In this document: positions 2,021-17,229 of the stretch, in pieces | How the letters are laid out: every line of letters starts with the position of its first letter | Position numbering within the stretch: position 1 is the first letter of the stretch | Virus record (IMG/VR): IMGVR_UViG_2791355118_000001 | Coordinates: 11,865 to 75,864 of that record | Length of the DNA stretch: 64,000 nt | Origin: a virus | Lineage: Duplodnaviria; Caudoviricetes | Reading direction: 5' to 3' (one strand) | Made by a program: the position numbers and the translations under genes | The notes under the pieces: generated by a model | Database searches by the model: none | What the model saw: the letters and a program-made list of their open reading frames with translations, nothing else | Told to the model about the DNA's origin: nothing

Positions 2021-2356
2021 ATGGACATGCCAGCAGTGCAAACGCCCCTAGTGACTGAGGAGGATATTTCGAGCGCCCTGGAGGAACAGCTGGAGCAGGA
2101 CGCTCCGCCGTCGGTCCGCTCGATGATCGCCAACACAGGCAAAACGCTCAAGCGCTTCGTCGATCAGATGCGGCGCAAGGAAACCGAGCTGGAGGGGGTG
2201 AAGGCGGCCGCCACGGCAGAGTTTGAGCGCGTCGTCGCTCTCGCGAAGATGGTACGCGATAACTGCCACGCTGAAACCGACGCGGATCTCCACCAGATCA
2301 GGACGACACTCGAGGTGCTCGATCCGGCCCGGGCCAAGCTGTCCGAAATGGCGTAA
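2021..2356 (+). CDS. Phage hypothetical protein (coiled-coil-like)
   Basis: 111-aa ORF with upstream GAGG and strong GC3 bias. Confidence 0.7.
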   Translation: MDMPAVQTPLVTEEDISSALEEQLEQDAPPSVRSMIANTGKTLKRFVDQMRRKETELEGVKAAATAEFERVVALAKMVRDNCHAETDADLHQIRTTLEVLDPARAKLSEMA

Positions 2357-2359
2357 CCC

Positions 2360-3499
2360 ATGGAGGCGGTTGTCCCCTTGGACGATTCCGGACTCGCTCA
2401 TGTCATCGAGCGAGCTCGGATGCTGTTCGACGACGGCGACGTCGCATCGGCGCGCATGCTGGCCGCTGGCGCCTATGACCAGGCGAAGGCGGCAGGGAGC
2501 TACGCCACCCGCTTCCATGCCGGCGAGCATCTGATCCGAAAGGCGCGCCGGCTCCAGGGTGACGCGCTGCTGATCGAAACGCGCGCGAAGATCACGATTG
2601 CCACCGAATGGACTGCCGCCCAGGAAAGAGGGGAAGCTTCGAAGGGCGGCAGACCGAAAACCGTTCCAGAGGGGAACGGTTTCACCGCAGCTGAAGCCGG
2701 GCTCACCCGCAAGGAAATCCACGACGCGCGCAAGCTGGCCGATGCCGAGCGGCGGGATCCTGGGATCGTGGAGCGCGCGATCGCCGGCCGCGTGGCCGCC
2801 GGGCTCGAGCCGAGCCGGGCCAACTTGCGCGTGGCGATCGGCACGGACACCGCCACGGCCGCCGAGCGCGGCAACAATCTCTACGAGACATGCCCGGAGG
2901 CGATGCATGCGCTGCTCGCGCTCGAGTCGTTCTCGCCTACGGTGAAGGCCTGCGGCCGCGGCGCCATCGTGAAGATGCTCGAGGCGGCCGGCTACGAGGT
3001 CGAGATTTCCGACCTGGTGGACTATGGAACCGTGACCGCGTTGGGCGTTTTGCAGCGCGTCGAGGATTTCCTGACGAGCACGCCCGAAGTTCTCGCGAGC
3101 GAGCTGGGCGGCGGTGGCTGGTATACTTTCGGACCCGACATCGCGACAAATCCGCCCTATGGCCCTGCGCTCAACGCCTTCGTCGCGCATGCGCTGCGCG
3201 ATCGTCCGCGCAAGATGGCGCTGCTGCTCAACCTGAATTTCTTCTGCGGCTTCGATGATGCCGACCGCAATTACGCAATGGACGAATGCAAGCCGGCCCG
3301 GGTCTACGCTTTCACGCGGCGCCTTCCGATGATGCATCGCGACGGCTGGGACGGCAACGAGTCCAGCAGCCGCATGAACCTGGCATGGTTCGTCTGGGAG
3401 ATGGACCAGAATGGCAGTTACGCCGGGCCGACCATCACAATCCGCGTCGACTGGAAAGACTATCTGCTCGCATCCAATCGTCAGGAGAGCATGCTTTGA
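2360..3499 (+). CDS. SAM-dependent DNA amino-methyltransferase with N-terminal DNA-binding-like region; motif I looks damaged
   Basis: NPPY catalytic motif. Motif I reads VKACGRGAI, lacking the usual EP of EPACGxG. C-terminal 'AWFVWE'. Confidence 0.75.
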   Translation: MEAVVPLDDSGLAHVIERARMLFDDGDVASARMLAAGAYDQAKAAGSYATRFHAGEHLIRKARRLQGDALLIETRAKITIATEWTAAQERGEASKGGRPKTVPEGNGFTAAEAGLTRKEIHDARKLADAERRDPGIVERAIAGRVAAGLEPSRANLRVAIGTDTATAAERGNNLYETCPEAMHALLALESFSPTVKACGRGAIVKMLEAAGYEVEISDLVDYGTVTALGVLQRVEDFLTSTPEVLASELGGGGWYTFGPDIATNPPYGPALNAFVAHALRDRPRKMALLLNLNFFCGFDDADRNYAMDECKPARVYAFTRRLPMMHRDGWDGNESSSRMNLAWFVWEMDQNGSYAGPTITIRVDWKDYLLASNRQESML

Positions 3500-4083: not shown

Positions 4084-5391
4084 TTATTTGAGCAATCTTT
4101 GCAGGTTTTCTTTAGCTTTTGCGACGCCAAGTGCGGCCGACCTTCTGTACAGTTCGAGTGCTTTCGAACGGTCCGCTTCTACCCCCAAACCTTTCTCGTA
4201 GAGATTACCCAAGTCGTTAAGCGCGACTGCATTGCCCAAGTCGGCGCTTTTCTTCAGCCAGGCAAAGGCCTCCGGGAAATTGACAGCAGTGCCACGACCC
4301 GTCGCATACATGAGTCCCAAATTGTGCTGGGCTCCAGCATGATTTTGCTCGGCCGCCTTTCTAAACCAAAAAAAGGCCTCGGTGTCGCTCTGTGGGACGC
4401 CCTTTCCGTTCAGGTAGCTGACCCCGAGATTCTGTTGCCCTTGGGCCTCTCCCTTTTCCGCCGCGACTTCAAACAACCTAACGGCACGCTGATAATCCTG
4501 GACGACGCCGCGACCGGAGGCGTAGAGGGCGCCAAGATTGGTATTGGCCGCAGGTAGTCCTTGCGCTGCCGCCTTTGCGAACCAAATGGCGGCCTGTGCG
4601 GCATCGGGTGCGACGCCTTTACCGCTGTCATAAAGTCCGCCTAGATTGTTTTCCCCGATGGGGTTGCCTACCGCGGCGGCAGCCCGATACCAGCGCATGG
4701 CAGCGACGAAGTCCTGTGGGACACCCCGGGCATACTCATACAAATAGCCAATTGCCGCCAGCGCCGTGGGATCGTTCTGGGCTGCCGCTTTCTGATACAA
4801 CATCATCGCTTGCGCATAATCTCTCTCAATGCCTTCGCCGCTCTCATAGACTGCGCCGAGCTGAAATTGGGCAGGGGCAAACCCTTGGCCCGCCGCCTGG
4901 CGGAGGAGTTCGACGGCCCGGACCGGATCCTTTGGTCCTACTTGGCCATTCCGATACATTGTGGCCAGGCTCAATTCCGATTGAGCAAATCCCTTGGCCG
5001 CCGACTTGGTATACCATGCAAAGGCGAGAGCGCTGTTTTGAGCCACGCCGATGCCGCCCTTATCATAGAGGTAGCCCAGATTGTGTTCCGCTTGCGCGTC
5101 GCCCTTGTCGGCGGCCTGCTCAAGGTATTCCCTTCCGCGCTCCGCGTCCTGCTTCACGCCGCACCCCATCAGGTACAAAAACCCGAGATTGTTGAGCGCC
5201 GACGGCTTGCCTAAGGTAGCGTCATTTTCCCATTCCTGTCGCTTCGCGGCGAGATCACCGACTGCTGCACACGTCTCTTGCTCTGTTATAATGAAATCGC
5301 CTGCAAGCGCGTGGGAAAAGGAAGTTGCAATTGATATTCCGGCGCAGGTTGCAGCCAGTATTATTACTTTGTGCCTTTCCGGATTAGTCAT
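4084..5391 (-). CDS. Secreted Sel1-like repeat (SLR) protein, ~10 repeats (moron)
   Basis: Hydrophobic N-terminus ending in ALA; repeated A-x-x-NLG-x-x-Y-x-x-G-x-GV motifs. Confidence 0.92.
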   Translation of the reverse strand: MTNPERHKVIILAATCAGISIATSFSHALAGDFIITEQETCAAVGDLAAKRQEWENDATLGKPSALNNLGFLYLMGCGVKQDAERGREYLEQAADKGDAQAEHNLGYLYDKGGIGVAQNSALAFAWYTKSAAKGFAQSELSLATMYRNGQVGPKDPVRAVELLRQAAGQGFAPAQFQLGAVYESGEGIERDYAQAMMLYQKAAAQNDPTALAAIGYLYEYARGVPQDFVAAMRWYRAAAAVGNPIGENNLGGLYDSGKGVAPDAAQAAIWFAKAAAQGLPAANTNLGALYASGRGVVQDYQRAVRLFEVAAEKGEAQGQQNLGVSYLNGKGVPQSDTEAFFWFRKAAEQNHAGAQHNLGLMYATGRGTAVNFPEAFAWLKKSADLGNAVALNDLGNLYEKGLGVEADRSKALELYRRSAALGVAKAKENLQRLLK

Positions 5392-5531
5392 TTCAGGCCG
5401 TCCATATTGGCTGATCGCCTCTCTGCGGAATGTCAAGGCCAGTTCAAAAACGATGCTCGGTGAATGAGCGCAAGACACAAGTATTTGACCGGTCGCCATC
5501 GCTCAGCGCGCAGGTCGGTTCCCGCCGTTAC

Positions 5532-5628
5532 GGATGCAACGAGCGCTGCACTCGGTGCGCAAATCAGGGATGCCAAGATCGCGAATAAGGCGCCAGCGGC
5601 CACAGGGCTAGCCAGGACGCGCGCGGCG
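5532..5628 (+). repeat. Imperfect direct repeat, copy 2
   Basis: Aligns by eye with 3930-4028. Confidence 0.85.
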
Positions 5629-5744
5629 GGGTTGGGGAGTAGGGTCGCTTCCACGGGCCGCTACGCAAAAAACGGCCGCCGCGAGGACCAGTCGCGACGG
5701 CCTCCCTACCAAGTCGGCCGAGGGGGAAGCGGCCGACCCGGATT

Positions 5745-7136
5745 CTACATCAGCATGGTGCGGGCATGTGCCTGGCGCAGCTGCGACTCCATCGAACGGA
5801 TGGAGCGCGACGCCGCCGCCAGCGTGTCCGCCCATTTGTCGGCCTTGGTGGGATCGACCGACTTCAAGACGATGCACTCGCCGTCCTTGAAGCCGCCGGC
5901 GATCGCGGCGATGATCCGCTCGACCGTCTTCTCCATCCTGCTCATGGCGGCGATATCGTCCTTCGACGGCTCCGGCCTGTCGTCGTCGAACATGCAGCCC
6001 TGCTCGATCCTGTCGCGGACGGCTTGCGCCGCCGCCTTGATGCTCGACCAGTCTTTCAGCTTGCCGCTGGAGAACAGCTTCACGATGTTGACCTGATCGG
6101 CCGTGGGGAGGTCGACGAGGTCGTTTGCATGGCCGAGCGGGAAGGCACCGCTATCGACCAGCTTCTGGATCGTCTCGTCCAGATTAAGCAGCGCCGTGCG
6201 GGCCTTGATGCGCGTCGGCTGGACGCCGATGTCCTTCGCCAGCTGCTCGACCGTCCAGCCGCGGTCGATCATCGCGTGAAACGCCCGCGCTTCCTCCAGC
6301 GGCTTGATGTCGGCGCGGGCGAGGTTTTCCACGATCGCCTGCAGCGCCATCTCGTTGTCGTCGATCTTGACGACCTCGCACAGAATGTCGGCCGCCTCGA
6401 TCAGCTGGTGAGCGCGCCAGCGGCGCTCCCCACCGACGATCTCATAGACCGCCCGGCGGCTTGGCGAGGCCGAGGGCTCGACGTTGTCGGACGCTTGTAG
6501 CGCTTCGTCTGAGCTGTTCGCCGATCCAGTCGTCGTGCCGCCACCATTGATCTCCGAGAAATTTGATTTCCTCCGGCGACCACCGGCACCGATGCCCGTT
6601 GTTGAGGAAGTCGTTGACTCTAACTCCGACTTGCTCTGCCGCGCTTCGTTTGACGTGGAAGTAGGGAAGGCAACAATCGATGACGTGCTTGACCTCTCTC
6701 GCCGCCGCGACGGTCCAGAACTATTGCTCCCAGGTTTTCCCGTGAAAGACTCGGTGTGATGGAGCGACGGTGCCGACGCACCATGCGTCTCGCAACCATC
6801 GGCAGATCGTTGCGCCGTCGTTTGTGACTGACTGGCTGACGACGACGCGGAACCGGTTGCCTTTGACGCTGATCGTTCCCTCTCCGTCGATGAAGCCGAC
6901 CGTGTAGGCGACGACTTCGATTGGAGGTCGAGCAAAGTGTTCCATTCTGCGATGTTCTCCGATGTGATTTCTTCGATTCGACCGTCGGTCAGGAAAACCG
7001 GGCGAACCGTGATGGCCTGGATAAGGCCGCGCTCGCGGATCGATTCAGCCAGCTCGCGAAGCTTCACCGGGTCGAAATGCTTGCGCGGCTGGTCGAGGTT
7101 CGGGATAACAAGGTTGAGGGGGATGCGCTTCTTCAT
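5745..7136 (-). CDS. ParB/Spo0J-family protein with a ~180-aa Ser/Thr-rich in-frame insertion
   Basis: QPRKHFD...LAESIRERGLIQAITVRP, then insert, then YEIVGGERRWRA and ENLARADIKPLEEA plus HTH; ATG at 7136 preceded by CCCTACCACGGAG. Confidence 0.88.
   Translation of the reverse strand: MKKRIPLNLVIPNLDQPRKHFDPVKLRELAESIRERGLIQAITVRPVFLTDGRIEEITSENIAEWNTLLDLQSKSSPTRSASSTERERSASKATGSASSSASQSQTTAQRSADGCETHGASAPSLHHTESFTGKPGSNSSGPSRRRERSSTSSIVAFPTSTSNEARQSKSELESTTSSTTGIGAGGRRRKSNFSEINGGGTTTGSANSSDEALQASDNVEPSASPSRRAVYEIVGGERRWRAHQLIEAADILCEVVKIDDNEMALQAIVENLARADIKPLEEARAFHAMIDRGWTVEQLAKDIGVQPTRIKARTALLNLDETIQKLVDSGAFPLGHANDLVDLPTADQVNIVKLFSSGKLKDWSSIKAAAQAVRDRIEQGCMFDDDRPEPSKDDIAAMSRMEKTVERIIAAIAGGFKDGECIVLKSVDPTKADKWADTLAAASRSIRSMESQLRQAHARTMLM
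6442..6945 (-). pseudogene. LAGLIDADG homing endonuclease with C-terminal HTH-like domain, nested in -1 frame of parB; one internal TAG (6721-6723)
   Basis: AYTVGFIDGEGTI motif. Reading through the TAG gives FWTVAAAREVKHVIDCCLPYFHVKR...WSPEEIKFL...IGEQLRRSATSVRQRRALGL. SD GGAG upstream of ATG 6945. Confidence 0.85.
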
Positions 7137-7143
7137 GGTCGGG

Positions 7144-7205
7144 CTCCGTGGTAGGGAATTTCCTAGCAACATCAATAACTTAGTATGTAACCGATATGGA
7201 TACAA
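7144..7205 (-). promoter_or_regulatory. Cassette head: TTGTAT-17-TAAGTT promoter, operator (7186-7204), RBS motif CCCTACCACGGAG (7144-7156)
   Basis: Same architecture recurs at 10.3, 11.9 and 14.0 kb. Confidence 0.75.
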
Positions 7206-7356
7206 GTGGTTACTAAGAAAAGTTCCGATCAGCGGGCCCCCCGCTTGCGCGCGCGACCGCCAGCAACGAAGCCGTGCAAAATGGTAATCCTGCCTCGGCG
7301 TCTGATGATCAGGGAAGCGGAAGCATGGCTGGTATCAAAGTTTCCAACAACAGCGG

Positions 7357-8250
7357 TCAAGGGAGCGGCAGCGGTGCATCACTCAAGGTCCGCAGGTAGG
7401 CAATGAGGTCCGCCCGCTTGTTTCCCTCCTTCAAACCCGGGAAAGACATGTCCGTACCGGGCAACGTGAGCGAGGGATTCGAGATGAAGAGATTGAGCTC
7501 CTCAAAGGTCCATTTGCCGCCAGCGTCTTTCAGAGCCGCCGAATACTGGACATCGCTTTGGGATCCTTTCTCGCGCCCGACGATGCCCCACAGATTGACC
7601 TTTTTGGGCACCTTGACGCCCGGCGAAAGATGACAGGCGACGCAGGTGCTGTCGTATATCTCTTTGCCCGATTGAGCGTTTGCTGATGCAAGGAGTGCGG
7701 AAATCGGCGCGATGGCCGGTCTTGCGGCGCCATGATCGCGCAAGTACGCCGCGACGTCCTCGTGGCCTCCGACCTTGGCCAGATGTATCGGCGGACTTCC
7801 ATTCGACGTCAGGGCGTTGACGTCTGCTCCGGCGCCGACAAGGTGGATAACGCACTCAAGGCAGCCATTTTCGGCAGCAACATGCAGCGGCGTCTGCGCT
7901 TTCGCCACCCGATTTGGATCGGCCCCGTTGTCTAGCAGCAGCTTGACGATGGCAGCATGCCCACCCTTATTGGCGGCGTAGAGTGGCGTTCTTTGCCAAC
8001 TGACAGGCAGGTTGACGTCTGCCCCACGCTTGATCAGCAGCGCTGCCAACTCGACATTTCCACGTTCGGAGGCGATGTAGAGCGCCGTAACACCGTCGAT
8101 TTCGTTGACATCTGCGCCTTTGTCCAAGGCGGAGGTCACGGCCGCGACGTCGCCATCCTTGACCAAATCCCCCAAGCTGCTCGCTTGCGCGGGCAGGGCC
8201 AGGAGGGCGCACGAAACCCACAGCGTCCACATGCGTCCCGGCTTGATCAT
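7357..8250 (-). CDS. Secreted ankyrin-repeat / cytochrome c fusion protein (moron)
   Basis: Signal peptide (AQA); ~4 ankyrin repeats (TALYIAS, TPLYAAN, TPLHVAA, PPIHLAK); CVACH heme motif and PGTDMSF axial-Met region of c2-type cytochromes. Confidence 0.9.
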   Translation of the reverse strand: MIKPGRMWTLWVSCALLALPAQASSLGDLVKDGDVAAVTSALDKGADVNEIDGVTALYIASERGNVELAALLIKRGADVNLPVSWQRTPLYAANKGGHAAIVKLLLDNGADPNRVAKAQTPLHVAAENGCLECVIHLVGAGADVNALTSNGSPPIHLAKVGGHEDVAAYLRDHGAARPAIAPISALLASANAQSGKEIYDSTCVACHLSPGVKVPKKVNLWGIVGREKGSQSDVQYSAALKDAGGKWTFEELNLFISNPSLTLPGTDMSFPGLKEGNKRADLIAYLRTLSDAPLPLP

Positions 8251-8384
8251 TGCACCCCTCTAGGCTGCTCGTATCTCACCCTGCAATTTAACCGAACGCA
8301 GAGAGTTAGTACACGCTAATATATGAAGAGGGGACGACGATCGGCTGGACGGTGGTGGTGTGTCGATGTTCATGCCGGCCACCC

Positions 8385-8906
8385 TCAGTCTATATTGCAG
8401 TGAACGAGCGCGGCCGCGTAGTCGACGCCGGTCTCTTCGGCATAGATTGCGGCCTGATCGCCGGGACGATTGGTGGCGGCCGCCGTCGGCTCGGCCTTGG
8501 CAATGGCTTCGGTCACCATCGCATTGCTTTTCAGGCTTGGGTCTCGGATGACGCAGAGTTTGAGCGCCGCAAGGATGTCCGGCCGCGCCTGTTCGCGCGG
8601 GATCGCGGCGCGCAAGCTGGCCAGGATGTCACCGACGCCCTTCTGCAGCGGATCACTCTCGAAGCCGGAAATGAACGACTCGGCCTGAGTCAGAGCGTCG
8701 ACGGTGTTGCTGGCGTGGTCGAAGGCCAGCCTTTCGACGAGCTCGTCGCGAAGCGTGGCGGCGGACTCGAGCGTGAGGGTTTCACACGCCCGCGACCCTC
8801 CCTTCGGGCCGTAGAACGAAAGCACGACTTCGCCCTTGCCTCGCGCGGCGCTGTTCAGCGATTCCATCGTGCCCTTGGCGGCGATGCTGATGTAAATCGC
8901 GTCCAT
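8385..8906 (-). CDS. Phage hypothetical protein
   Basis: TGATG overlap with upstream gene; MDAIYISIAAKG... Confidence 0.65.
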   Translation of the reverse strand: MDAIYISIAAKGTMESLNSAARGKGEVVLSFYGPKGGSRACETLTLESAATLRDELVERLAFDHASNTVDALTQAESFISGFESDPLQKGVGDILASLRAAIPREQARPDILAALKLCVIRDPSLKSNAMVTEAIAKAEPTAAATNRPGDQAAIYAEETGVDYAAALVHCNID

Positions 8907-11850: not shown

Positions 11851-11898
11851 CTCCGTGGTAGGGATAACGATCCTATGATGTAACCAATTTGGTTACAA
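11851..11898 (-). promoter_or_regulatory. Cassette head: perfect operator TGTAACC-AATTT-GGTTACA (11879-11897), TTGTAA-17-TAGGAT promoter, RBS motif
   Basis: Directly visible. Confidence 0.8.
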
Positions 11899-11908
11899 TA
11901 TGGTCAAG

Positions 11909-13480
11909 CTAAAAGTAATTTCTGCGGCCGTCCTTCCATAGCTTGACCGTGACGGTGTTCACGTAGGTCCCGACCTCGGCGAAGGATCCGTGCGGCAGAT
12001 CGCGGAACTGGCCGTTCAGCTTCTCGATCAAGGCCCGGAAAGCGATGGCCTTGCGAGTTTCGCGAAACTCGGTGCCGGCCGACATGATGGCCGCGAGGCA
12101 CCCGCCGTCTTCCAGGAAGTCGAGGGCGTGCACGACATGGTCGATATCGCGCTCCATGTCGAACGGCGGGTTCATGATGATGCGATCGTATTTTCCCGTC
12201 ACGGAGGGGCGCAGCGCCAGGAAGTCGGCGGCGTACACCTTGCGGTATTTGCCCTGCGCCTCGAGCGCGGCGGCAAGCGCTGGCTGTAGCTCCACGCAAT
12301 CGACCTGGTTGTCGAAGCGGTATTCCTTGCGCCAGCGGTCCATCCGGGCCTCGTCCCCATATCCGTAATGATCGGCGAAATCTTCGATGCCGGTCAGGCA
12401 GCGGCGCGCCAGATTGCCGGTGCCGGCGCTGGGCTCCAGGATCCGAAGGCGCGGCTTCTCGATAGGCTGGAGAAGGGGAATGCTCTTAAGCAACTCCTCG
12501 GCCGCGGCGTCGGGCGTCGGGAAGAAACCGAAGTTCTTAGCCGGCGTGGTCTTCCGGTTGCGGAAAAGGTCGTCGGGTTCCTGGGTCTGCCCGTCGCCGA
12601 TCACCTCGCCGTAGTATTCGGCGAGCATCTTGTTGACCCTTTCCACCAGGTCGTCACGCGTGAACCAGAGATGGGCATTGCCGTTCTTGTAGGCGACGAT
12701 CCTGAAATACTCGCCGTGATGTTCGGACTGCTGAGGCTGAAAGCCCCTGCGCTCGGCTCGCACCTGGTTCTCGATGCTGTTGTAGGTCGGCTTCTTGCCG
12801 TCGAGGATTGAGAACGTCCGCTCGATATCGCGCACCGTCTCCCATGTTCCGCCCCACGTTACGTTGCCGTGGTCGCGGTCAAAGGCGTAGGGCAGGATCA
12901 TGCGGCTGCCGACCTTGAAGCCGTCGTGCGAACGGAAACGGCGATCGAGCTTGGAAAACGCCGTGGCGATGCCCCGGCGGAAGATCATTTCGGATTCGCC
13001 GGCCCACTTGTCGATCGTGGCGTACACGTTGTCGACGGTCACCGGCGGGATCCCCATGATCTCGTCGAGATTGACCAGTTCCTTTCCGTTGCCGTGCCGG
13101 TGGTCGTAGCGCTCCGGCACCCACCTGAGAGTGTCGCGCAGCTCGTCCTTGGCCTGCTTGTCCATCAGGATCTCGAGGTCGGTCATCTGGACCAGGTAAT
13201 GCCAGCACGAGATATCGATCAGGCGGATTGCTGTGCGCTTCCACTGCTCGGCGTCTGGCAAATCGACGGCTTCGAAAAATGCCCTGACCTCGTGGTTGTC
13301 GCGGTCTCCGTATCGAGAGCAGGCATGATCTCCGGCGGCCGCTTTCCAGAGCGCCGCCGCCTTCTTCAATTCCCGGTCGGCTTGCTCCATTGAGGCGAAC
13401 GCCCCGTGATAGGCCGCGACCGCGGCGTCCCGATAGGCGACGATCTGCTCGATCGTGTTGCGCGGGATGAGCGCGTTCAT
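11909..13480 (-). CDS. DUF4942-like domain fused to DNA amino-methyltransferase
   Basis: FFPTP, ILEPSAGTGNL (motif I), IIMNPPF (motif IV); N-terminal region with FRSHDGFKVG and YKNGNAHLWF. Confidence 0.85.
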   Translation of the reverse strand: MNALIPRNTIEQIVAYRDAAVAAYHGAFASMEQADRELKKAAALWKAAAGDHACSRYGDRDNHEVRAFFEAVDLPDAEQWKRTAIRLIDISCWHYLVQMTDLEILMDKQAKDELRDTLRWVPERYDHRHGNGKELVNLDEIMGIPPVTVDNVYATIDKWAGESEMIFRRGIATAFSKLDRRFRSHDGFKVGSRMILPYAFDRDHGNVTWGGTWETVRDIERTFSILDGKKPTYNSIENQVRAERRGFQPQQSEHHGEYFRIVAYKNGNAHLWFTRDDLVERVNKMLAEYYGEVIGDGQTQEPDDLFRNRKTTPAKNFGFFPTPDAAAEELLKSIPLLQPIEKPRLRILEPSAGTGNLARRCLTGIEDFADHYGYGDEARMDRWRKEYRFDNQVDCVELQPALAAALEAQGKYRKVYAADFLALRPSVTGKYDRIIMNPPFDMERDIDHVVHALDFLEDGGCLAAIMSAGTEFRETRKAIAFRALIEKLNGQFRDLPHGSFAEVGTYVNTVTVKLWKDGRRNYF

Positions 13481-13743
13481 GGGCTGATCCCTTCTGCGAT
13501 GCAAAGAGTCTTCCAATCGACGTATGCAATCGACACACCGCAGCGCGTGAAATGGCTGTCTCTCTGTTCCCAACCTGCGGCTCGGGCGGCGGTCTCCCAT
13601 AGGTCGGGCGCGTCCACCGGCTTGAAGGATCGCGCCTTGTGCATGCGCTGGAAGGCGAACGCGTCGCCAAGCTCGCTCACGAACTCGTAGCGCTTGCTGC
13701 CGTCGAGCAGGGTGAACTCGTATTCAGTCATCTTGTCGGTCAT
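13477..13743 (-). CDS. Phage hypothetical protein
   Basis: RBS motif variant at 13754-13766; ATGA overlap with the methyltransferase. Confidence 0.7.
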   Translation of the reverse strand: MTDKMTEYEFTLLDGSKRYEFVSELGDAFAFQRMHKARSFKPVDAPDLWETAARAAGWEQRDSHFTRCGVSIAYVDWKTLCIAEGISP

Positions 13744-14491: not shown

Positions 14492-15754
14492 GTGGCTGAA
14501 GAAGCCATCGTTTCTGCCGATCCCCTTTATCTGACTGCGCTCGCAAGCCTCGGCGCAAGCGTGCCAGAACGTCTGACGGCCTTTGTCCCCAATAACAGTA
14601 TCGCCGTCCTTCCTTTCGTGAACATAAGTGGCGAGACCGCTGAGGAGCAGTTCACCGACGGCCTGACCGAAGACATCATAACGGACCTATCAAATGTCTC
14701 GGGCTTTCTCGTCATCGCACGCAATTCAACGTTCGCATACAAAGGCAAATCCGCTGATGTTCGTGAGATCGCTCGCGACCTAGGTGTCAAATACATACTT
14801 GAAGGTAGCGCCCGGCGATCCGACAAACGCCTTCGCATCAATGTGCAGCTTATCGACGGTGCAGACCGGGGCAATCACGTCTGGGCCGAACGCTTTGATC
14901 GGGAACTATCTGATATTTTTGAGCTGCAAGACGAAGTTACCCGACGAGTTGTGGAAGCGATTTCCGGCAAGATAGGCGTAAAAAACATTTCTTCGCGGTC
15001 AAAGCCATCCAATCTCGAGGCCTATGACCTTTGCGTTAGGTCGCGAGGAAAATGGGACATTTCGAGATCAGACACCAATGAGGCGTCTGCTGATCTGGAG
15101 CGTGCTGTCTCGCTGGACCCAAATTATTGCGAGGCCCACAGCAATCTTGCCGTCTCACTGCTACACGGCTGGATGATTTGGGGAGGGCCGCAGATGCCCG
15201 GCCGCGCCAAGGCTCTGGTGCACGCGCGACGAGCGGTGGAAATCGACCCGGATGATTCTCACGCTCGCGCGATTCTAGCTTACGTTCAGCTTTATGAGCG
15301 CAATTGGGATGAAGCAAAGCTCCAACTAGATGCTGCGGTTCGGCTAAATCCCAACGACGCACATGCGGTTGCGTTGAAAGGTGAGCTTCAATTCTACTTA
15401 GGCAATCCGCAAGCGGCGCTGGTGGCTTGTGCGGAGGCACTGCGTTTGAATCCTCGTCCGCCGGGTGGGTATTTCTGGATCATGGGAATGGCGCAAATAT
15501 CCTCCGGTCAGTACGAAGAAGCTGTAGTGTCCTTGAGCCGGGAAGAAACCTATGGGACGGGTTCGAGAGAGTCTCTGATTGCCGCGCTTGCCCTTTCCGG
15601 TCGCCTCTCTGAGGCACAGGAGGAAGCTCGTCTATTTCTTACGGTCAATCCAAATTGGAGGTTCGGTGATCTGGCGGCGAACTCACCCTTCAGAGAGGTG
15701 AGCATTGGGCAGCCATTCATTGGTGGTTGGCGTTTGGCGGGCCTACCAGAGTAG
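14492..15754 (+). CDS. TolB-like + TPR protein (C-terminal architecture of rhizobial class III adenylate cyclases, no cyclase domain)
   Basis: SIAVLPFVNIS...DGLTEDIITDLS...VIARNSTF...WAERFDR followed by TPRs; start uncertain. Confidence 0.8.
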   Translation: MAEEAIVSADPLYLTALASLGASVPERLTAFVPNNSIAVLPFVNISGETAEEQFTDGLTEDIITDLSNVSGFLVIARNSTFAYKGKSADVREIARDLGVKYILEGSARRSDKRLRINVQLIDGADRGNHVWAERFDRELSDIFELQDEVTRRVVEAISGKIGVKNISSRSKPSNLEAYDLCVRSRGKWDISRSDTNEASADLERAVSLDPNYCEAHSNLAVSLLHGWMIWGGPQMPGRAKALVHARRAVEIDPDDSHARAILAYVQLYERNWDEAKLQLDAAVRLNPNDAHAVALKGELQFYLGNPQAALVACAEALRLNPRPPGGYFWIMGMAQISSGQYEEAVVSLSREETYGTGSRESLIAALALSGRLSEAQEEARLFLTVNPNWRFGDLAANSPFREVSIGQPFIGGWRLAGLPE

Positions 15755-15855
15755 GCAACGCGGGTCCTCTCGCAAACATCGAAAAAGCGCCTCGGATAAG
15801 CTCCCGGCCTCTTCCCATTGACAGGCACTACAACACCCGTAAACTCGAATGGTGG

Positions 15856-17229
15856 ATGAAAGTAGCTTTCGTTATGCCCGACGAAAAGCCAACGCTTACG
15901 CTTCCCCTAGTGGGCATAGACCCGCTTCTGTTAGACGCGTTCTCGCAATATGAAGGGCCATCCCAACAAAACTCACTGAGACAAGATCGAACCTCTACCG
16001 GCGCTGGGGCGAAGATCGTCGACAGGATGGGCGCAGGACTGGAGCTCGATGCTCCGCCACACGCGCCGGTCCCAATTTTCGCATCTATCGCGGTACTTCC
16101 ATTCTCCGACGTCGGGGGCGGATCGGATCACGCGTATTTCGCCGAGGGAATATCCGAGGACATCCTGACCGAACTTTCGCGATTTAGAGGCTTGTTGGTC
16201 ATCGCGAGAAATTCGTCATTCGCGTTCAAGGGTGAAAACGTCGATATCAGGGCCGTCGCAAAAGAGCTGAACGTCGACTACGTCGCGACGGGCAGTGTGC
16301 GGCGAGCGGGGAGCAGGGTCCGGGTGGCTGTTCAACTGACCTATGCTCCTACTGGGCATGAAGTTTGGGCCGAGCGCTATGATCGCGATGTCGTAGACAT
16401 ATTCGCCGTGCAGGACGACATTGTCAGGACGGTTGCGGTGACGCTTGAAGCGCGCCTCGGGCAGGCAATAGCAAGTCACGCGGCCCCTCGGAGTGTTCCG
16501 ACGTTGGCCGCGTATGAATGTATCCTGTTGGCGCGAAAGTACGATGAGTTGCATGATTCAGCCCGCGCCAGGCCCTTTGCAGAGAGGGCGCTCGCCCTTG
16601 ATCCAAGTTCATCGCAAGCTCATTCCGCAATGAGCTATTGTGCCTACATCGATTGGTTGCAAGAACCCGATGACGAAACCCTCGAAAAGATGGTCGCGTA
16701 TGCGAATGCCGCCGTGCTGCTCGATAGGGGGGACGCTTCTGCTGAAGCACTTTTGGGCATGGCTCTGACATGTCAGCAGAAGTATGACGAAGCGGGCTCT
16801 CATCTCCAGCGCGCTCTAAGCCTTAATCCGGGTGAAACGAAAGCGCTGGCCTATTATTCAGAGTGGCTCGTTCGCACGGGCGACGCCGAAGAGGCTCTGC
16901 GGAACATGGACGAGGCCCTTTTGCGAGACCCTATTCCGCCGCCATGGCATTGGGAGATCCGCGGAATGGCGTTCTTAGTGCTGGAAAGGTACGCCGAAGC
17001 CATTCAAGCTTTCGCCCGTCAGACGAGGCAATTCTGGTACATCGCCGCCTACCTTGCGATCTGTTTCGCTAGGCTTGGCAGGATGAATGAAGCTACAGCC
17101 GAACTGAATAAGGCGCTACAGGTTGTACCTGATCACGAAACTCTTCGCATTCAAGTTGTGAACGAGTTTGTCAGCCAGGGCACCCGCGATAAACTTTCTT
17201 ACGGGCTTTCCCTCGCCGGGCTCGACTAA
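15856..17229 (+). CDS. Second TolB-like + TPR protein
   Basis: SIAVLPFSD...EGISEDILTELSRF...VIARNSSF...WAERYDR followed by TPRs; start uncertain. Confidence 0.8.
   Translation: MKVAFVMPDEKPTLTLPLVGIDPLLLDAFSQYEGPSQQNSLRQDRTSTGAGAKIVDRMGAGLELDAPPHAPVPIFASIAVLPFSDVGGGSDHAYFAEGISEDILTELSRFRGLLVIARNSSFAFKGENVDIRAVAKELNVDYVATGSVRRAGSRVRVAVQLTYAPTGHEVWAERYDRDVVDIFAVQDDIVRTVAVTLEARLGQAIASHAAPRSVPTLAAYECILLARKYDELHDSARARPFAERALALDPSSSQAHSAMSYCAYIDWLQEPDDETLEKMVAYANAAVLLDRGDASAEALLGMALTCQQKYDEAGSHLQRALSLNPGETKALAYYSEWLVRTGDAEEALRNMDEALLRDPIPPPWHWEIRGMAFLVLERYAEAIQAFARQTRQFWYIAAYLAICFARLGRMNEATAELNKALQVVPDHETLRIQVVNEFVSQGTRDKLSYGLSLAGLD

Follow-up and report, generated by a model that had tools for sequence, protein, structure and literature searches.

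Self-splicing introns and inteins are the textbook ways for a homing endonuclease gene to sit harmlessly within an essential coding region. A third way has been proposed from mycobacteriophage DNA methylase genes, where the ShiLan domain and the Pacc40 insertion are in-frame insertions hiding out-of-frame HNH endonucleases: the insert would be translated through as a loop, with the nuclease, for which leaderless initiation is proposed, concealed in the other frame (Arsenault, Gosselin, Gogarten 2025, Genes 16:178, PMC11855218). In the available part of that article the word 'ParB' does not occur, the mentions of LAGLIDADG concern a separate 'lone' insertion and no out-of-frame LAGLIDADG enzyme is described without an intein. 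The same group has reported, in two preprints available in part, inteins with an out-of-frame or antisense homing endonuclease, in cyanobacterial dnaX (bioRxiv 10.64898/2026.09.14.751524) and in actinophages (bioRxiv 10.1101/2025.01.02.630785). Here we describe a related arrangement in a 64,000-nucleotide stretch of a viral record, hereafter the window (IMG/VR IMGVR_UViG_2791355118_000001, positions 11,865 to 75,864), in which a LAGLIDADG-type reading frame lies inside a parB gene. This is probably a 'hidden', out-of-frame homing-endonuclease cassette that has neither intron nor intein and through which ParB is read.

A second reading frame within parB

The gene and its insert are composed of the following features.

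5745–7136, minus strand: parB reading frame, from ATG at 7136 to the stop at 5745–5747, 463 codons, open straight through the insert
6996–7136, minus strand: first part of the ParB_N domain, codons 1–47, ending in ITVRPV; Pfam profile positions 4–49
6447–6995, minus strand: the insert, F48–V230 of the ParB frame, 549 nucleotides, 183 codons without a stop
6946–6995, minus strand: leader coding only in the ParB frame (FLTDGRIEEITSENIAE), holding GGAG at 6957–6960 and T-D-G-R where relatives have P-C-G-H
6442–6945, minus strand: predicted homing-endonuclease gene, −1 relative to the parB frame, with 167 codons and a TGA stop; pseudogenized in the window copy
6601–6921, minus strand: LAGLIDADG core, nuclease residues 9–115, motif AYTVGFIDGEGTI
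6721–6723, minus strand: TAG in place of the Trp codon TGG that every relative seen has at nuclease codon 75; Ser in the ParB frame
6466–6594, minus strand: predicted C-terminal three-helix, helix-turn-helix or Myb-like unit, nuclease residues 118–160
6432–6445, minus strand: junction letters in which the three insert carriers agree with one another but not with the insert-free allele, a putative short co-conversion tract that includes the nuclease stop
5745–6446, minus strand: rest of parB (YEIVGGERRWRA and following), with the second part of ParB_N, HTH_ParB and the C-terminal region

ITVRPV ends at 6996 and YEIVGGERRWRA starts at 6446, with the insert between them. The initial annotation had given the gap between these two ParB motifs as 552 nucleotides; the gap is real and its coordinates were right within one codon, but that length counts V47 and the exact one is 549 nucleotides (6995–6447). 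It had also described the ParB frame here as uninterrupted and rich in Ser and Thr, and we find no stop from F48 to V230 and a Ser plus Thr content of 35%, against 9% in the C-terminal flank of ParB. The guanine-plus-cytosine (GC) content is 59% in the insert versus 64% in the flanks. Compared with the insert-free allele, the insert takes the place of five codons and lengthens the gene by 180. The empty site has the sequence ...CGCCCGGT CGACGG CAAG TTC ATG ATC GTC... and the filled site ...CGCCCGGT TTTCCTGAC CGACGG TCGAATC...GGTC TAT GAG ATC GTC..., a comparison that leaves the exact borders ambiguous by a few bases. A GTCGAC palindrome in the empty site was considered as the target site, and the cleavage site could not be defined; the similarity of 'DGRIEEI', past the upstream junction, to 'DGRYEIV' is too weak to claim the former as a degenerate copy.

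In the parB product, Pfam recognizes ParB_N in two stretches (E 2.6e-20) and HTH_ParB (E 8.7e-15). The protein also carries GGERRWRA, a form of the GERRxR motif that we take to bind cytidine triphosphate (CTP), and belongs to the ParB/Spo0J family. In public protein clusters of insert-bearing ParB, annotation of the same alleles varies between records: 456–487 residues, when read through, or 270–286 residues, when the start has been placed inside the insert.

The nuclease open reading frame (ORF) starts at ATG 6945–6943, with a Shine-Dalgarno-like GGAG (6960–6957) 11 nucleotides upstream, stops at TGA 6444–6442 and occupies 504 of the 549 insert nucleotides; start, GGAG and stop of this 167-codon gene were all recovered where first annotated. 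The LAGLIDADG helix and its acidic metal-binding residue are present in the window copy. An exhaustive HMMER search with the intact nuclease returned 404 cluster representatives at E<=1e-3, of which 33 reach E<=1e-10; the relatives found are mostly 160–230 residues long and match end to end. One intact relative (P0003), of 168 residues, is 97% identical to the window copy and has Trp at the position of the TAG. When the profile of 32 relatives was compared with Protein Data Bank sequences, I-CreI, I-MsoI and I-CvuI were matched at E of about 1e-8 and single-chain I-CreI at 6.9e-18.

Structure prediction leads to the same enzymes. The AlphaFold2 model of P0003 (which is not the window copy itself) has a predicted local distance difference test score (pLDDT) of 96, and its elements H9-22, E23-28, E31-39, H44-55, E59-67, E70-79 and H82-95 form an alpha-beta-beta-alpha-beta-beta-alpha fold. 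Its top Foldseek matches are I-CvuI, I-CreI and I-MsoI (probability 1.00, E 4e-8). D20-G21-E22-G23, Q38 and K99 are invariant in 13/13 nuclease sequences, E22 being presumably the equivalent of I-CreI D20. The helix-turn-helix or Myb-like unit proposed initially is supported by three modelled helices (124–132, 138–145 and 149–159), by a weak match to a Myb-like domain (E 0.17) and by the relatives, which contain one to three copies of it matching assorted helix-turn-helix Pfam families. Judged from profiles and models, the second frame encodes an I-CreI-like LAGLIDADG endonuclease of the single-motif type, to which a helix-turn-helix unit has been added at the C-terminus. PHROG 5046 also matches the nuclease (E 5.8e-7), a family labelled 'HNH endonuclease', and tblastn against the phage collection gave no match.

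Conservation of the two-frame layout

Loci of the nuclease family were taken from alignment scans, which return only what the peptide pattern finds, on viral or genome contigs (40 loci) and metagenome contigs (80 loci); each was examined for frames without a stop over the full length of the nuclease match. The ParB frame, +1 relative to the nuclease, is open in 4/40 viral or genome loci, namely the four closest relatives (L003, L004, L009 and L010), and in 18/80 metagenome loci (L047–L064), which are precisely the ones at tblastn E<=2e-16. Among the distant LAGLIDADG loci it is open in none (0/36 and 0/62, together 0/98), and it is never open in controls with a GC of about 0.6 or more. GC ranges from 0.41 to 0.72 in the nested loci, one of which stands at 0.42. 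Apparent duplicates are L060/L061, on the contig of L009, and L047/48, L050–52, L054/55 and L057/58, with the same spans; there are about 14 distinct nested sequences in some nine lineages. The initial claim that the host frame is kept open holds across these relatives, although the lineages share only 44–55% of nucleotides.

A ParB-type host frame is found at every placed close relative of the nuclease. ParB_N with HTH_ParB, or ParB_N alone, is recognized in 7/10 host frames, split at profile position 48/49 to 50 as in the window. The other three host frames (L009, L062 and L063), together with that of L010, match phrog_2159, 'ParB-like partition protein' (E 1e-39 to 1e-65), and represent the type located downstream of a PAPS-reductase-like gene. 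The nuclease stop lies 4–16 nucleotides upstream of I/L-V-x-G codons in 13 of the 14 sequences, and a GGAG/AAGGAG-like site precedes the nuclease start by 8–11 nucleotides in relatives. By these sequence comparisons, the nested layout is a family trait and not chance. On the contig of L009, a second, free-standing LAGLIDADG-like ORF (2245–2772, plus strand, motif LAWLAGLWDGEGSI) was noticed between the PAPS-reductase-like gene and the ParB-like gene with its nested nuclease.

Where the layout is damaged, the two frames are not hit alike. Only the nuclease frame is broken in two cases, the window and L064 (834–2339), whose 501-codon host frame is intact; both frames are broken in one (L059), and the host frame alone in none. 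No intact nuclease in a broken host was met among the nested loci, nor any homologous insert with a stop only in the ParB frame. Decay restricted to the endonuclease frame, as first suggested, is thus true of the window and of L064. Moreover, the ParB flanks of the three insert carriers (the window allele, L003 and L004) differ with a proportion of synonymous differences (pS) of 0.16–0.21 and of nonsynonymous differences (pN) of 0.012–0.022, giving pN/pS of 0.06–0.14: on this measure, the ParB flanks are under purifying selection and not decaying.

Selection is also visible within the insert. In close pairs (nucleotide identity >=0.69), substitutions are most frequent at nuclease codon position 3, then 1, then 2 (9, 2 and 0 for L003/L004; 51, 33 and 21 for L050/L053), so that the amino-acid constraint lies in the nuclease frame. 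Yet the 12/12 intact nuclease genes have 0 stops in frame +1, compared with 0–9 in frame +2. Back-translating the window nuclease with the codon usage of 13 long window ORFs of high GC at third codon positions gives 3.0 expected stops in the ParB frame, with P(0 stops) = 0.027. Codon choice displays how this would be achieved. Of its 19 Val codons, 18 are GTC, one is GTT and none is GTG, which makes up 31% of Val codons in the window, and CTG is used for 0/8 Leu codons as against 39%. An NTG codon before A in the nuclease frame would create TGA in the host frame, and such codons are avoided.

The window has a GC content of 62% and long spurious ORFs are common in it. One could thus regard the open ParB frame as a by-product of GC-rich DNA, parB being dead and disrupted by a free-standing endonuclease gene. 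The chance opening of frame +2 in a few GC-rich control loci, and a single-gene permutation that is not significant for L003 (0.38), would fit this explanation. We consider it very improbable and largely refuted: the same frame is open at 42% GC (P 0.03 in a conservative test) and in all close relatives versus 0/98 controls, the flanks keep the low pN/pS given above, codon choice is skewed against NTG and host-frame amino acids are conserved in relatives. Frame +2 of the distant LAGLIDADG genes in L093 (2497–3123) and L019 (2817–3332), open across the match, is probably a matter of chance.

Several points nonetheless weigh against a conserved, read-through cassette. Synonymous permutation within each gene yields P(0 stops) of 0.03–0.38, from 0.03 at the 42%-GC locus to 0.38 for L003. 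This procedure is conservative because codon usage itself has already been shaped, and it is weak or underpowered for single GC-rich genes, so that it is the lineages taken together that carry the argument. In GC-rich controls, frame +2 is at times open by chance (L019, L093 and nearly L043). L059 (2200–3467) has at least three frameshifts that hit both nuclease and ParB, reflecting either two broken genes or a poor assembly; the N-terminal ParB part of L063 is not recognisable, L056 is cut by the contig end, and 12/14 distinct sequences are clearly whole. On the protein side, the insert sits two residues upstream of the GERRxR motif, and its tolerance there is an assumption. ParB residues 48–78 (window 6903–6995), with a strand at 53–56 and a helix at 62–75, are modelled at pLDDT 68–89, where the alignment is only four near-identical sequences deep. 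Lastly, the LAGLIDADG assignment proposed at the outset stands on the I-CreI-type profile of the relatives and on the structure match but receives no help from Pfam: LAGLIDADG_1 and LAGLIDADG_3 miss both the window nuclease and P0003, and each matches 2/32 relatives.

Mobility, proposed read-through and the fate of the insert

Insert-free ParB homologues of 283–293 residues are common. Both kinds of allele foreseen by the initial annotation exist: the nearest insert-free ones (P0006, L007) are 92–94% identical in the flanks, and intact nucleases are carried by L003, a viral contig, and L004, from Mesorhizobium sp. WSM3860, with ParB open in both. The TAG (6723–6721) reads Ser in the open ParB frame and, as had been noted, kills only the endonuclease. 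This position reads TGG in 4/4 public DNA runs aligned to 6300–7200, and the TAG is therefore private to the window allele. Behind 6484, all four runs also contain three additional bases, which leave both frames intact. Over 6300–7200 no joint of the insert-free form occurs in these runs, which says nothing about other samples. Read from these sequences, the window nuclease has just been inactivated (TGG to TAG) while ParB is still whole.

Comparison of the alleles points to recent movement. Between the three carriers the insert differs at only 7–13 positions (98–99% identity), whereas pS reaches 0.16–0.21 in the ParB flanks. The window flanks are closest to those of the insert-free L007 (pS 0.074), and there are 60 variable columns in which the window has the L007 letter while L003 and/or L004 has another. 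Letters shared by the carriers and differing from L007 cluster at the junctions (6996, 6978–6981, 6442–6445 and 6432), with few further out. The nuclease stop had been described as borrowed from the host TAT-GAG (Y-E) codons: the overlap with TAT-GAG is real, but the stop is not simply host-derived, as the nearest insert-free allele has TTC-ATG and the changed letters at 6442–6445 are common to all three carriers. Such a footprint would be expected if one cassette had recently been copied into different parB alleles, with short tracts of co-conversion. In a search of the genus Mesorhizobium, the nuclease was found in 1/202 species genomes and a close ParB in 2/202, a genus-level sampling too thin for phylogeny.

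We propose the following scheme. Homing would have placed the LAGLIDADG cassette in the ParB N-terminal domain, at the codons that lie between strands ITVRP and YEIV; the cassette has a length divisible by three, and its codon choice keeps the ParB frame (+1 relative to the nuclease) free of stops. Translation initiated at the parB ATG would run straight through the insert, and the resulting ParB would have 463 residues rather than about 283; a surface hairpin would bear a loop of some 180 residues, mostly disordered and rich in Ser and Thr. Initiation at the internal GGAG-ATG would yield the nuclease, which would cut insert-free parB alleles, and repair would copy the cassette in. Both the read-through translation and the nuclease activity are what we infer from the locus. 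In the AlphaFold2 model of the window ParB (alignment of 54 sequences), pLDDT is 84–95 in the ParB parts and below 50 for residues 79–222. Foldseek matches the model to CTP-bound ParB and Noc structures (probability 1.00) in alignments that bridge the insert.

Alternatively, the insert could be removed by a splicing process that present models miss, either a ribozyme of unfamiliar class or an unorthodox protein-splicing or self-cleaving element using the Cys of P-C-G-H, so that mature ParB would lack the loop. Most relatives do have a Cys within about eight residues of the upstream junction, conserved at the protein level, and inteins with out-of-frame endonucleases exist, as described in the available parts of the two preprints (bioRxiv 10.64898/2026.09.14.751524; 10.1101/2025.01.02.630785). 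Nevertheless, we consider splicing unlikely, in line with the initial annotation, which had seen neither intron nor intein. No Rfam family matches at E<=1 in 5000–8500, and none at E<=0.1 in ten nested loci except for a stray mir-15 match elsewhere; an intron would moreover give no reason for 180–235 stop-free host-frame codons. Hint or intein Pfam families are matched neither in the window (E<=1) nor in ten other host frames (E<=1e-3), thus in none of 11. Y, F, E or I follows the insert, in no case Cys, Ser or Thr, and the insert does not end in His-Asn. As the nuclease fills 504/549 nucleotides, there is no space for splicing blocks outside the overlap, and the window copy itself, with T-D-G-R, has no Cys at the junction.

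Ribosomal bypassing, which the initial annotation had offered as an alternative, or programmed frameshifting over the insert, would be another way of making ParB. In T4 gene 60, ribosomes bypass 50 nucleotides, and a hop of about 550 would go far beyond this. Bypassing needs neither an open frame nor a length divisible by three, yet both are conserved; it is unnecessary, leaves the kept-open frame unexplained and has nothing specific in its favour. We hold it to be scarcely credible.

A read-through loop does not have to be an inert one. Past the upstream junction and before the nuclease start, the host frame spells P-C-G-H in 9/15 sequences, and P-C-G-V or P-C-G-D in two more. The third positions of these codons vary freely (CCC/CCT/CCA, TGT/TGC, GGA/GGT/GGC/GGG, CAT/CAC), hence selection acts on the peptide. 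Further on, LPYLRVK, the most conserved motif of the nuclease, is spelled so that the host frame gives C-P-[IT]-C. Its two Leu codons are CTG or TTG in 9/10 representatives, whereas conserved Leu codons elsewhere are CTC in about 8/10; its Pro is CCC in 10/10, whereas another invariant Pro uses CCT, CCA and CCG. Such conservation of P-C-G-H and C-P-x-C only makes sense if the host frame is translated. The two motifs are carried by L047, L049, L050, L053, L054, L056, L057, L009 and L062, and in part by L010 and L063. The window lineage has T-D-G-R and F-P-T-S instead, and L064 has P-D-G-R.

This pattern suggests a Cys-x-His ... Cys-x-x-Cys metal site in the host frame of relatives, located partly in the nuclease leader and partly over LPYLRVK through forced codon choice. 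In most relatives, the host-frame peptide would then not be pure filler. Tentatively, and as a possibility rather than an expectation, the host frame itself could be functional there: with its selected Cys-x-His ... Cys-Pro-x-Cys set, possibly a zinc site, the cassette would genuinely encode two products, one per frame. The second, a zinc-clamped module, would either render the loop of 180–235 residues harmless to the ParB fold or confer a new property on ParB, and the window lineage would have lost the motif and would tolerate a plain disordered loop.

Genomic setting and relation to known systems

The source record is 75.9 kb long, is a provirus by its IMG/VR class and has close relatives in Mesorhizobium genomes. 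No tRNA gene was found in the whole window, and in spite of the 'provirus' label no phage family was matched among the nine neighbouring ORFs of parB scanned with Pfam. The neighbours (4084–5499, 7357–8250, 11909–13600, 14492–17229) include a Sel1-repeat protein, an ankyrin-repeat and cytochrome c fusion, a DUF4942 protein and two tetratricopeptide-repeat (TPR) proteins. A palindrome, TGTAACC-N5-GGTTACA, is present in six copies (up to two mismatches) versus 0 expected, at 7186–7204 (plus strand) and also at 446, 10282, 11879, 14024 and 18778. One copy lies 50 nucleotides upstream of the parB ATG, so that parB seems to be part of a common regulon of the element. In one run only (X1), a plant-metagenome contig of depth 15 shows +1, −3 and −1 indels within 56 nucleotides of the 5′ part of parB (window 7068–7124), which represent either a locally compensated frameshift or a divergent allele.

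The predicted nuclease shares its fold, its motif and the conserved acidic residue (E22) with I-CreI, I-MsoI and I-CvuI, homodimeric single-motif enzymes of algal group I introns. The genes of these enzymes sit in self-splicing introns of rRNA genes. In contrast, the parB nuclease has an added C-terminal helix-turn-helix unit and lies in a protein-coding frame without an intron. Mobility without intron or intein is also known from the seg and mob genes of T-even phages, free-standing homing endonuclease genes that engage in intronless homing with co-conversion of flanking markers. While these lie between genes or split them, the parB nuclease is inside a gene that stays whole.

If the proposed reading is right, the LAGLIDADG family would also have evolved or adopted the third way of lodging a homing endonuclease, in its case within ParB-type genes of soil bacteria and of their mobile elements. 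The arrangement appears ancient and stable, since site and frame relation are kept across lineages with saturated synonymous sites, and its traces can be measured at the codon level. Gene-calling programs get such genes wrong, and a hidden nuclease ORF is easily overlooked. Very large insertions seem to be accommodated by ParB hairpin loops, which may be useful for protein engineering, and the family could offer new compact meganucleases with an extra DNA-binding unit.

The inteins with out-of-frame endonucleases come close to this layout in several respects, as far as the available parts of the preprints describe them (bioRxiv 10.64898/2026.09.14.751524; 10.1101/2025.01.02.630785). They too have a LAGLIDADG-type nuclease in a shifted frame, a host frame that is open and disordered there, purifying selection that follows the nuclease frame and a Shine-Dalgarno motif before the internal start. 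However, they retain intein splicing domains to either side and are removed from the protein, whereas the parB insert displays no splicing domain and no junction nucleophile. In the literature we found no report of an out-of-frame LAGLIDADG enzyme in ParB; the supplementary survey tables of PMC11855218, outside the scope of this search, may list more hosts.

The closest parallels are the ShiLan and Pacc40 insertions, here compared from the available part of their description (PMC11855218). As in these, a host-frame stop-free insert, in our case of a length divisible by three, lies between conserved host codons, and the nuclease is encoded in another frame of the same strand, starting a few codons into the insert and stopping in its last bases. 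All these insertions lack a detectable intron or intein and are patchily distributed, alongside insert-free alleles, and the host-frame insert is predicted to be a loop. On the other hand, ShiLan and Pacc40 are HNH enzymes in methylase genes of Mycobacterium phages, whereas an I-CreI-like LAGLIDADG nuclease is found here in a ParB-type gene, in Mesorhizobium and soil metagenomes; the parB cassette is thus a variant that falls outside the ShiLan family proper. Its nuclease start has a Shine-Dalgarno-like site upstream, in contrast to the leaderless initiation proposed for the methylase insertions. Beyond what is described for these, the parB layout has persisted in lineages that have reached saturation at synonymous sites, and it shows stop avoidance at the codon level and host-frame residues that appear selected. 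The hidden out-of-frame design is already published, and its LAGLIDADG/ParB form is a new variation on it.

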